The notes under the pieces are model-generated. The model worked only from the letters and a program-made list of their open reading frames with translations, had not been told where the DNA came from and ran no database searches. This document shows positions 25,528-27,181 of a stretch of 64,000 nucleotides of DNA, in pieces. Position 1 is the first letter of the stretch. The number at the start of each line of letters is the position of its first letter. Origin of the DNA: Candidatus Acidiferrales bacterium (GTDB lineage: Bacteria; Acidobacteriota; Terriglobia; Acidiferrales; UBA7541); contig JBKQNJ010000095.1 of assembly GCA_052146315.1 (NCBI GenBank), positions 33,364 to 97,363 on the forward strand, written 5' to 3'. Position numbers and translations under genes: made by a program.

Positions 25528-26352
25528 CTACGAGGCTGGAGAGGTCGCGAAGGTCTTGTTTCGAAAGGAAGCCTCAACTGTTGCGGCAATCGAAAGGCAA
25601 TCTTCCGCTGCAAGTACAGGGTGGCGAACGCGGCGAGGGAATTCGTCATAGGTCCGTCCGTCAAGCTTTCTGCCCGTCGCAGACTTACGAACGCCGCCCC
25701 ACTGCTTAAAGAAGAAGGCCGCTCCTGCACGCTGACATTGGTCTCGAACAGACAGCACCCACTCCCTATTCATGGGCCTCGCCCCTGGTCCACTTTCGCC
25801 GCCCACTATCACCCAATGGATTCCATCCAGATCAAACCGTCCGAGGTCTTCGAGCAAGGGCTCGACGGAGAGAAATCGAATCTCCGCGCTCGCTTTCCGC
25901 AAGTCGTCGATGCGCGGAAGGCCGTACTTTCGATCCTCAACACTTACTCCCCACCATATATGCGGCTGGCACGCCGCGAACGCCAAGCTAGAATTCAGAA
26001 GTTCTCGAAGGCGCTCAGATCGTTTCGTCAGCACCTGATAGGTATGCCATCTGGCCGCGACCATAACCTTCGCGACCTCCTTGATGTAGGCGTCCGGTAC
26101 GGCGTCATGAAACAGATCACTCATCGAGTTGACGAAGACCATCTTTGGCGCACGCCATCGCAACGGCTCGCCGAGCTTCTCGGGAACCAAGCGCAAGTCG
26201 AACCCTTGCTCGTACGGATGCCTTCTGACTCCCCGGAATCGCTCCGCGAACGTTTCCGCGTAGCAGTGCTTGCAGCCGGGGCTAATCTTTGTGCATCCCC
26301 TTACCGGATTCCAGGTGGCATCCGTCCACTCGATTGCGGATACTTGGGCCAT
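25528..26352 (-). CDS. DUF5131 / phage Gp37-Gp68 family protein (three-Cys-motif protein)
   Basis: [39 protein letters not shown] is the characteristic N-terminus, with a Cx6Cx2C motif. The ATG at 26352 lies 2 nt after the stop of the upstream TcmP-like ORF. Confidence 0.8.
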   Translation of the reverse strand: [274 protein letters not shown]

Positions 26353-26354
26353 TA

Positions 26355-27181
26355 CTACCTCCGGTACTTCGAGAAAATCTCGCGAGCGATCTTTTCTGCA
26401 GTGCTGTTCTGCGATGCGAAGAAGAGATAGTAAACTATCGCGCCTTTGGAATTCTGCATCGGTAGAGGCTCCGGCACGCACTTAAAACCCCCGGCTTCCT
26501 TGAGCCTCTTCCGAAATGCTTCGGCGATTACCTCGTTTGGCTCTTTCTCGACCATAGGTCCGAACAGGCCCTGCGTAGTTCCGTATGCGACCTGTCTCCA
26601 AGACTCGTCGCCCCAAAACCGATTCATTCTCTCGACTTGTTCTGGCCTTGCTCGCTCAGGATTTCTCCATATGGCATTCCTGTTCATGTCCTGTACCGGG
26701 AAGTTCAAGAACACGTCCAAGGTTTTCATCTCTCCGGCAGTCGCCATCACTTTCCAATCTAGATGGAGTCCATATGGATCAAGCACGCAAAGTCCTCGAC
26801 GATACTGGTCATATCGGACTCGGGGGAAAACATCCTGCAGTAGTATTTCATTGCAGTCGCCTTGATAAATGAAAACATCCTTGCGCAGGCCGACAAGCTC
26901 TTGCAGGCTTCGATCTTTTCTGGGGCGATGTCGATGAGATGAAATTCCCGGAATTCCGGCCGGACAGCCAGCGCGTTAAGCGGGCTTCCGGGAACAAGTT
27001 CCTGGCTTGCCCTCGAGAGGTGCTTCCCAGCGCCGGCGAAAGCGTCGATGTAGACATGCGAAAGTGCGGCCTTCGTCTGCGAGGAGAGAATTATCGAGTA
27101 GGCAGCGGCGTATTTCTTCAGAATCTCCAGTTTGATCTCGGACCACACTCCGATCTTGTCGAATTGAAGGTGCTTGGCCAT
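26355..27181 (-). pseudogene. three-Cys-motif partner protein TcmP-like, split by a frameshift (or a sequencing error)
   Basis: The N-terminal ORF (26759-27181) has YIDAFAGAGKH, a methyltransferase-motif-I-like sequence. The C-terminal ORF (26355-26786) begins LDPYGLHLDW. My translation of the C-terminal frame upstream gives ...SLQELVGLRKDVFIYQGDCNEILLQDVFPRVRYDQYRRGLCVLDPYGL, so one continuous protein is restored by a single-nucleotide shift. Confidence 0.65.

Follow-up and report, generated by a model that had tools for sequence, protein, structure and literature searches.

A partly decayed TcmP/DUF5131 gene pair in an acidobacterial contig, and its possible place in a LexA-controlled, mobile nucleic-acid-processing family

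Two adjacent genes on the minus strand of an acidobacterial contig, one for a protein of the TcmP family and one for a DUF5131 protein, are the subject of this report. They lie at positions 25528-27181 of a 64,000-nucleotide stretch (positions 33,364 to 97,363 of contig JBKQNJ010000095.1, GenBank assembly GCA_052146315.1, from a Candidatus Acidiferrales bacterium) that is called the window throughout. The window pair is genuine but unremarkable: it has partly decayed and belongs to a known, uncharacterised family that is spread over many bacterial phyla, temperate phages and plasmids and has been catalogued only as an untested defence candidate. Comparison with other genomes showed tight linkage of TcmP to DUF5131, natural fusions included, and showed that LexA-type boxes are strongly enriched just ahead of the cassette in genomes related to this one; the cassette in the window was also shown to have a foreign base composition. 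The best-supported reading of the pair is that of a self-contained, mobile, LexA-repressed two-enzyme module that would act on nucleic acid, probably DNA. It is enticing to speculate further, and we do so tentatively, that the pair represents a mobile LexA-controlled DNA-processing system of a new kind, in which a radical S-adenosylmethionine (SAM) enzyme that is a sister of SplB would repair or rewrite a base selected by a swappable RlmJ-like partner.

The original prediction had described the two genes as a conserved pair, a description to be abandoned if the genes were not linked in other genomes. Linkage was surveyed with curated models in 301 genomes of the window's phylum, with close DUF5131 loci defined as those scoring at least 300 bits and with TcmP genes counted when they lay within 3.5 kb. 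A TIGR04474 match was found near 46 of the 51 close DUF5131 loci, the other five (5/51) being high-scoring DUF5131 genes without TcmP within that distance, and in a second phylum, centred on a Verrucomicrobia metagenome-assembled genome (MAG), TcmP was adjacent to 20 of 23 close loci. The genes occur in every arrangement (TcmP first, DUF5131 first, divergent and convergent), and in an Acidobacteriota MAG (L075) they are joined as a single 647-residue fusion protein. A search of 1.84 billion representative proteins with this fusion identified two more (P0248 and P0307), and the family is large, with 39,887 representative proteins matching a fused DUF5131-TcmP query at E<=1e-3. With linkage at 46/51 and 20/23 loci and with the fusion proteins, the objection that there is no linkage elsewhere clearly fails. 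All linkage counts were taken from the curated TIGR04474 model only, because a narrow TcmP hidden Markov model (HMM), which had been built from hits of more than 67% identity, overlooked divergent classes of TcmP that TIGR04474 picked up in many loci. The distribution of the pair is patchy (61/301 genomes), and the 21 lower-scoring, phage-type DUF5131 genes of the phylum sample are all without a TcmP gene within 3.5 kb.

The cassette in the window is composed of the following elements.

25528..26352, minus strand: intact gene for the DUF5131 protein (Gp37/Gp68, three-cysteine, radical-SAM-superfamily), 274 residues, stop codon at 25528-25530.
26907..27181, minus strand: N-terminal part of the TcmP pseudogene, codons 1-91 and two bases of codon 92, with motif I YIDAFAGAG.
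26906..26907, minus strand: site of a missing T, a -1 frameshift in TcmP (GAAGC^CTGCAA versus GAAGCTCTGCAA in the intact relative L005).
26355..26906, minus strand: C-terminal part of the TcmP pseudogene in the -1 frame, from codon 93 to the TAG stop at 26357-26355, with an LDPYG motif.
26358..26362, minus strand: GGAGG Shine-Dalgarno sequence of the DUF5131 gene, within the last TcmP codons (translational coupling).
27194..27211, plus strand: LexA-type direct-repeat box CTTCGCCCTATCTTCGCC (TTCGC-N6-TTCGCC), between the -35 hexamer and the TcmP ATG.
27216..27221, minus strand: TTGACT, -35-like hexamer of the cassette promoter, conserved together with the box in the window, L005, L009 and L090.
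25564..27224, minus strand: DNA common to cassette copies in unrelated contexts, namely the promoter and both genes (blastn of L090, L010 and L091 against the window).

TcmP starts with the ATG at 27181 and contains HVYIDAFAGAGKH; its stop codon is separated from the DUF5131 ATG on the same strand by exactly the 2 nucleotides (26354-26353) that the original prediction had given. A scan of 24000-29000 against Rfam found no RNA families, and generic sigma-70 and terminator scans gave matches at chance level.

Base composition sets this cassette apart from the rest of the window. TcmP has a G+C content of 0.526 and DUF5131 of 0.576, compared with a window mean of 0.613 (sd 0.029, 800-nt windows), and the six lowest-G+C 800-nt windows of the 64 kb are those starting at 26100-26600. 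G+C at third codon positions is 0.62 and 0.64 in TcmP and DUF5131 versus 0.75-0.80 in the flanking genes. The A/T-richer islet that had been proposed is therefore real, and indeed the lowest-G+C stretch of the window; the flanks are of native composition, as proposed, and a hand count of 29/60 G+C for the line 26761-26820 proved exact. The 1.66 kb listed above (about 25564-27224) is all that copies in unrelated contexts (L090, L010 and L091) share with the window by blastn. No convincing terminal direct or inverted repeats surround the cassette at 25200-27500, and, in keeping with the earlier statement that neither integrase nor tRNA is visible, there is no tRNA in the 64-kb window and no tyrosine integrase (PF00589) on the contig. 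Identities at the locus are mosaic: PPK2 is 94.8% identical to that of L009 and 86.7% to that of L005, and DUF5131 is 86.5% identical to that of L009 and 94.9% to that of L005. In L006, the same site carries an unrelated TcmP with a C-terminal winged helix-turn-helix (wHTH; PF22560) beside an 84%-identical DUF5131. By these comparisons, the history of the cassette is decoupled from that of its flanks. In the account to which we give an even chance, the pair in the window arrived by horizontal transfer as a 1.66-kb TcmP/DUF5131 cassette, with its own promoter bearing a LexA-type operator and with a translationally coupled DUF5131 gene, and the two proteins of the family would act as set out below.

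The putative operator was identified by comparison with lexA promoters. Those of 21 genomes of the window's class share an [AT]TTCGC-N6-TTCGCC direct-repeat box in the spacer between -35 and -10, and there too the box is preceded by a TTGACT hexamer. An Alphaproteobacteria-type GTTC-N7-GTTC box was reportedly described for Acidobacterium capsulatum by Mazón et al. in 2006, and the class box would be of that type. A weight matrix was built from 20 lexA-promoter sites of the class, the window's own genome being left out. In this genome the matrix gave 24.7 bits for the lexA promoter and 18.8 bits for recA, and its top hits lay before a DinB-family gene (30.5 bits), a RecA-like gene (29.6 bits) that we take to be of the imuA type, a DEAD helicase gene (26.7 bits) and a UvrD helicase gene (26.1 bits). 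Two tandem boxes (24.7 and 28.0 bits; C54:19574-19624) precede a gene for a 389-residue SplB-like radical SAM protein (PF04055); this canonical sister of DUF5131 thus seems to be SOS-controlled in the genome that also carries the window pair. Because its best hits precede DinB-family, RecA-like, SplB-like and helicase genes, the matrix does find SOS genes.

Applied to 87 TcmP/DUF5131 loci (1.39 Mb), the matrix placed 24 of its 28 sites of at least 18 bits within 150 nucleotides upstream of a TcmP or DUF5131 start. This zone makes up 1.4% of the sequence, so that about 0.4 sites would be expected there by chance, and 24 of the 87 loci have such a site directly upstream of the pair. Strong upstream boxes include those of L090 (28.9 bits), L091 (28.7 bits) and the fusion gene of L075 (24.4 bits). 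A LexA-type operator is probably part of the cassette in this phylum, and it speaks for a role in the DNA-damage response no less than for one in phage defence. Elsewhere, strong boxes were seen 1-2 kb from the cassette and not at its promoter (L010 at 7552, 28.4 bits; L014 at 11273, 25.1 bits); these may be the operators of SOS genes nearby. The window's box, CTTCGCCCTATCTTCGCC, scores 15.8 bits; both TTCGC half-sites are perfect and the 11-nt period is correct, and the spacer is not T-rich. Its half-sites are the two units of a perfect 11-nt tandem duplication at 27191-27212, in which TATCTTCGCCC stands twice. Sites at the equivalent position score 28.9 bits in L090, 28.7 in L091, 17.8 in L009 and 15.8 in L005, and L090 shares both hexamer and box with the window although its genomic surroundings are different. 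Only weak boxes (15.8-17.8 bits) are present throughout the clade in which the cassette is linked to DUF1697 (window, L005, L009 and L006), and the operator may have been weakened in the same clade where TcmP decays.

The DUF5131 protein of the window is a clear family member. It matches PF07505 over profile positions 2-243 of 243 (E 9.2e-101), with 336.8 bits against a curated cut-off of 28.9, as the original prediction had it; phrog_2045 and the PADLOC models PDC-M41B (E 1.2e-106) and PDC-M30B (E about 1e-106) are matched as well. The predicted Cx6Cx2C N-terminus is present as C20, C27 and C30, and these three cysteines are invariant across 58 homologues, together with GGESG (184-188) and an FFKQxGG motif. 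Identity is high over long distances, at 55-81% across Acidobacteriota, Planctomycetota, Verrucomicrobiota, Myxococcota, Nitrospirota and Alphaproteobacteria. Sequence searches against solved structures gave nothing significant for either DUF5131 or TcmP. An AlphaFold2 model of the DUF5131 protein (predicted local distance difference test, pLDDT, 88.9; predicted template-modelling score, pTM, 0.88) consists of alternating strand-helix units, and its best match among solved folds is spore photoproduct lyase (4FHG; probability 1.0, E 3.6e-3, template-modelling score, TM, 0.49), followed by ordinary TIM barrels; MiaB is among the weak matches. An hhalign comparison with the SplB-like radical SAM protein of the same genome aligned about 100 residues at 25% identity (E 1.5e-5) and put C20, C27 and C30 on the Cx3Cx2C triad of that protein, with a 3-residue insertion. 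In RadicalSAM.org, DUF5131 is listed as Megacluster-5-2, beside an MJ0683-like group and spore photoproduct lyase (PMC9477430). The megacluster listing, the cysteine alignment and the fold match together support the earlier suggestion of a radical-SAM-like cluster site.

Among the closest known systems is the SplB/spore photoproduct lyase group of radical SAM DNA-repair enzymes (COG1533; 4FHG; Megacluster-5), which shares with DUF5131 the megacluster, the best fold match and the aligned cysteine triad. In this phylum one and the same LexA-type box also stands before the SplB and DUF5131 genes. Published work counts SplB (COG1533) among the SOS genes of several phyla (PMC3323433, PMC8565304), and a literature search found no paper reporting DUF5131 as one. 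DUF5131 differs from the SplB group in the spacing of its cysteines (Cx6Cx2C, not Cx3Cx2C), in the absence of a PF04055 hit and in its obligatory methyltransferase-fold partner, which SplB does not have. The only other NCBIfam model touched by DUF5131 is that of Radical SAM mobile pair protein A (TIGR04471; 73 bits), which likewise comes from a two-gene mobile pair; however, the score is far under the 355-bit cut-off, so that DUF5131 is not a member, and the partner of TIGR04471 is a second radical SAM protein and not TcmP. The genome carries a second DUF5131 gene, which is phage-type (210 bits) and without TcmP, on contig C36 (L002; 839-1705, minus strand). Adjoining it at 1940-3187 (minus strand) is a gene for a 415-residue protein with an AlkB-type 2-oxoglutarate (2OG)-Fe(II) oxygenase domain and DUF4326, a neighbour of nucleic-acid-repair type.

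Both halves of the window TcmP exceed the TIGR04474 cut-off of 53 bits, in two reading frames (75.8 bits over positions 2-93 and 94.6 bits over 134-262), and in a six-frame search the C-terminal part covers positions 96-262 with 120 bits; the TcmP assignment of the original prediction therefore holds. The fold was analysed with the intact L005 protein, whose gene is 91% identical in DNA to the window TcmP. Its AlphaFold2 model (pLDDT 91.0, pTM 0.89) has a class I Rossmann-like methyltransferase fold. Foldseek returned 86 PDB matches at E<=1e-3, the best 50 of the 86 being methyltransferases or close relatives; first among them is RlmJ, the Escherichia coli 23S rRNA m6A2030 enzyme (7p9i; E 1.4e-8, TM 0.54), and the DUF519 protein LPL1258 (2OO3), KsgA and TYW4 are among those that follow. 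These matches to RlmJ-type methyltransferases agree with the earlier reading of YIDAFAGAG as resembling methyltransferase motif I. Among 42 diverse TcmP sequences, D46, G50 and G52 of motif I (IDAFAGAG in the window) are invariant, as are K17 and Y24 of the N-terminal helix and D135. The last belongs to motif IV, D135-P136-[Y/F/W/E]-G138, which resembles the DPPY of amino-methyltransferases.

With RlmJ (the 23S rRNA A2030 N6-methyltransferase; DUF519/RlmJ; 4BLU, 7P9I), TcmP has in common the class I core, an N-terminal helix with an invariant lysine, the acidic residue and GxG of motif I (D46, G50, G52) and an Asp-Pro motif IV. Identity in sequence is only 13-17%, however; TcmP has no RlmJ Pfam hit, and it reads D-P-[YFW]-G and not DPPY. 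Whereas RlmJ is a housekeeping rRNA enzyme that works alone, TcmP is accessory, mobile, paired with DUF5131 and often equipped with a wHTH. The C-terminal wHTH that many TcmP proteins carry is of DNA type (PF22560). TcmP classes are deeply divergent (21-31% identity) yet paired with near-identical DUF5131 proteins. A TcmP homologue in Gordonia phage BaxterFox (L098, 4747-5733, minus strand; hhalign probability 99.5%) reads YIDLMSGQP where other members have the glycine-rich motif I, and because these glycines are missing, not all members of the TcmP family would be able to bind SAM in the usual way. The name 'GMT-like wHTH' of PF22560 prompted a comparison with the Gamma-Mobile-Trio, and a link was rejected: GmtX, GmtY and GmtZ, which comprise recombinases and a StbA-like protein, bear no relation to TcmP.

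These kinships suggest how the two proteins might work together. TcmP would be an RlmJ-like, SAM-binding, base-flipping protein of methyltransferase fold that picks the nucleic-acid target, most likely DNA, as a fast-evolving and swappable specificity part. DUF5131, predicted to be a [4Fe-4S]/SAM radical enzyme and a sister of the SOS-regulated SplB/spore photoproduct lyase group, would be responsible for the conserved chemistry, acting on a base presented or methylated by TcmP. LexA cleavage after DNA damage would turn the pair on, and phage attack or prophage induction could act as a trigger in the same way. If so, the bacterial DNA-damage response would have in this pair a widespread arm that has gone unrecognised, which would explain its carriage by phages and defence islands, and the window copy would be a recently disabled example of it.

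The RlmJ kinship also raises the possibility that the pair modifies RNA (rRNA or tRNA), either as RlmJ does or in the manner of Trm5 and TYW1, where the product of a methyltransferase, the methylated base, is then taken up by a radical SAM enzyme. We hold this to be improbable. The best TcmP matches (RlmJ, then KsgA and TYW4) and the presence of MiaB among the weak DUF5131 matches are in its favour, but LexA control, SplB kinship, the DNA-type wHTH and the occurrence in defence islands and prophages all point to DNA, and an accessory, patchy and often broken pair would be unexpected for ribosome or tRNA maturation.

Decay of the pair is one-sided. Of the 46 pairs of the phylum survey, 9 have a TcmP that is clearly disrupted, by frameshifts, stops, truncations and an insertion, each lesion being different, and the adjacent DUF5131 match is without a stop or split in 46/46. 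In L009, a close relative of the window, TcmP is reduced to its C-terminal 113 codons. In L031 (7776-9997), an insertion of about 0.9 kb splits TcmP beside an intact DUF5131, and in two Verrucomicrobiota contigs (L093 and L094, 2732-3653) TcmP has an internal deletion and a frameshift and DUF5131 is intact. No intact TcmP without DUF5131 was seen in the 301-genome phylum sample. The second phylum softens this picture: only one of its pairs has a broken TcmP, and three of its TcmP genes lie beside only distant DUF5131-like proteins. One-sided decay suggests that TcmP activity is harmful or pointless without DUF5131. In the model, the TcmP product would be harmful or useless in the absence of DUF5131, and this is the proposed reason why TcmP is often found broken beside an intact DUF5131 and never intact alone in the phylum.

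A more extreme form of the same idea is a poison-antidote module of the addiction type, in which a harmful modification that TcmP puts on a base would be undone by the radical chemistry of DUF5131, in the way that spore photoproduct lyase undoes a lesion, the solitary DUF5131 proteins of phages being antidotes. Such a module would have an outside chance of being correct. It would fit the breakage of TcmP but never of DUF5131 (9/46 against 46/46 unbroken), the lack of intact orphan TcmP genes in the phylum sample versus five high-scoring and 21 lower-scoring DUF5131 genes without TcmP, the 181 phage records with DUF5131 against 5 with a TcmP-like gene, and the compact, self-contained two-gene unit that moves without a recombinase. 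It fits less well with the single-polypeptide fusions, which are unusual for a poison and its antidote, with convergent and divergent gene orders, which decouple the expression of TcmP from that of DUF5131, and with two genomes of the second phylum that carry tandem TcmP genes and no detectable DUF5131. A single pathway in which TcmP comes first and DUF5131 second would account for the asymmetry just as well.

The window provides one more case of this decay. The original prediction had spoken of expressing a repaired pair, wording that implied a frameshift, and alignment of the DNA to the intact L005 TcmP gene located it as a single T missing between 26907 and 26906. The N-terminal frame consequently runs out of register to a stop at 26759-26761. 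L005, a JGI metagenome contig, shares with the window the synteny GerE-PPK2-DUF1697-TcmP-DUF5131; its TcmP is intact (276 residues; DNA about 91% identical), and its DUF5131 protein is 97% identical. The ratios of nonsynonymous to synonymous substitution rates (dN/dS) against L005 are 0.087 and 0.042 for the two TcmP halves and 0.075 for DUF5131, indicative of strong purifying selection. Because both TcmP halves are still under such selection, the break would be either very recent or an assembly error. An error in the assembly or consensus, which would leave the organism with an intact and working pair, is an unlikely explanation. It would be consistent with a metagenome-type assembly of 132 contigs and 84% completeness, with dN/dS values of 0.04-0.09 and no second lesion in TcmP, and with the intact gene of the 91%-identical relative. 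Against it, the missing base lies outside any homopolymer, no other broken genes came up among the neighbouring genes examined, and TcmP decay is common. Since about one fifth of the phylum's pairs have lost TcmP independently, through lesions that differ from case to case, a real pseudogene is much more likely than an artefact. Programmed frameshifting was considered and ruled out, as the site has the form of neither a homopolymer nor a slippery sequence, no slippery heptamer is present at 26905-26925, and the intact relative is simply one base longer. With TcmP broken, the window copy most likely no longer functions as a pair, and only the DUF5131 protein could be made. This copy adds little beyond one more instance of TcmP decay beside an intact DUF5131, an asymmetry that hints at the order in which the two activities work or at their toxicity.

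The families of the pair are not new to the defence field, and the description of it as uncharacterised and defence-flavoured is apt. PADLOC-DB v2 lists them as PDC-M41 (with a short TcmP) and PDC-M30 (TcmP with a C-terminal wHTH), and the A and B models of PDC-M41 match the window best. The window pair shares with the TIGR04474 and PF07505 pair its passage of the curated cut-offs, its adjacency, its common strand and its translational coupling, but its TcmP is split by the one-base deletion and its local neighbours are not defence genes; because of the split, a strict call of a system with two intact genes fails. PDC-M41 and PDC-M30 are among 145 explicitly untested candidates, chosen because they are embedded in BREX, DISARM or type I restriction-modification loci (Payne et al., bioRxiv 10.1101/2024.01.29.577857). 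Full-text literature searches on both families returned genome surveys and gene tables only, and no functional study.

Individual loci, cited here as anecdotal examples, display a range of defence contexts. On pSymA of Sinorhizobium meliloti 1021 (L095, 4379-10040), a short TcmP gene follows directly on the validated defence gene hna, and next come an opposite-strand TcmP-wHTH gene and DUF5131, so that two TcmP paralogues flank one DUF5131; genome G441 has the same layout. On a Leisingera plasmid the pair has two Abi genes as its neighbours, in L091 it adjoins an SRA-HNH gene, and in L006 a SIR2_2 gene is close by. In Gordonia temperate phages, the pair is found between the integrase and the immunity repressor. 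Phage records as a whole contain DUF5131 in 181 cases and a TcmP-like gene in only 5.

The pair might accordingly be a dedicated anti-phage system (PDC-M41) that modifies or damages phage nucleic acid or kills the infected cell, with the LexA box doing no more than turn it on once infection or prophage induction has set off the SOS response. We consider this doubtful, if with a real chance of being right. It has on its side the matches to PDC-M41/M30 models (E 1e-106 for the B component; for the A component, PDC-M41A matches both TcmP parts, with E 8.5e-44 for the C-terminal one), the selection of PDC systems from defence-embedded loci, and the neighbours just described (Hna, Abi, SRA-HNH, SIR2_2 and the integrase-repressor position in Gordonia). 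A patchy distribution (61/301 genomes) and a TcmP that is swapped like a cassette and often lost would also be in character. However, the 145 PDC systems are candidates only; the neighbours in the window, L090 and L093 are housekeeping genes; the identity of DUF5131 across phyla (55-81%) fits a universal substrate better than an arms race; and SplB, the sister family, works in repair and is subject to the same control by LexA in this very genome.

The reading of the pair as a LexA-repressed, DNA-processing module led by a relative of SplB must be weighed against a number of findings. DUF5131 departs from the canonical Cx3Cx2C, having a variant Cx6Cx2C spacing; PF07505 is its only Pfam hit, PF04055 (Radical_SAM) not being matched; and its fold match to spore photoproduct lyase (E 3.6e-3, TM 0.49) is weak. 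TcmP lacks the second proline of the catalytic (D/N/S)PP(Y/F/W) motif, neither of its halves nor the intact L005 relative has a Pfam hit, and RlmJ, its closest solved fold, acts on rRNA and not on DNA. Tandem TcmP genes without detectable DUF5131 occur in two genomes of the second phylum. A score of 15.8 bits, moreover, is at chance level genome-wide (36 real sites versus about 30 in a composition-matched simulated genome), so that support for the window box rests on its position and its homology to strong sites; for one pre-specified 60-nt stretch, the chance of a 15.8-bit site is about 4e-4. The window box is also antisense to TcmP, unlike those of lexA promoters, and yet the 29.6-bit box of the RecA-like gene is likewise inverted. 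The Hna, Abi, SRA-HNH, SIR2 and prophage-lysogeny contexts fit phage defence at least as well as repair, the frameshift could be an assembly error, and every functional step of the model is inferred from fold and context. The pair is a well-posed experimental target on three counts: its radical SAM enzyme has a DNA-repair lyase among its relatives, its RlmJ-like partner is exchanged in the manner of a specificity cassette, and it has a LexA operator.

The genes around the window cassette encode a pyrroloquinoline quinone (PQQ) dehydrogenase, an unannotated protein without a Pfam hit, described as exported in the original prediction, DUF1697, PPK2 and a LuxR-type regulator. Within the window's clade (L005, L006 and L009), the cassette always comes after DUF1697, and DUF1697 was considered as a third member of the system; it was rejected since it lies upstream only in this clade, other copies having unrelated neighbours. 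In L006, a SIR2_2 gene and a gene for a 929-residue protein without a Pfam hit are inserted between PPK2 and DUF1697 (881-4689), so that accessory or defence genes may be prone to gather at this locus as at a hotspot.

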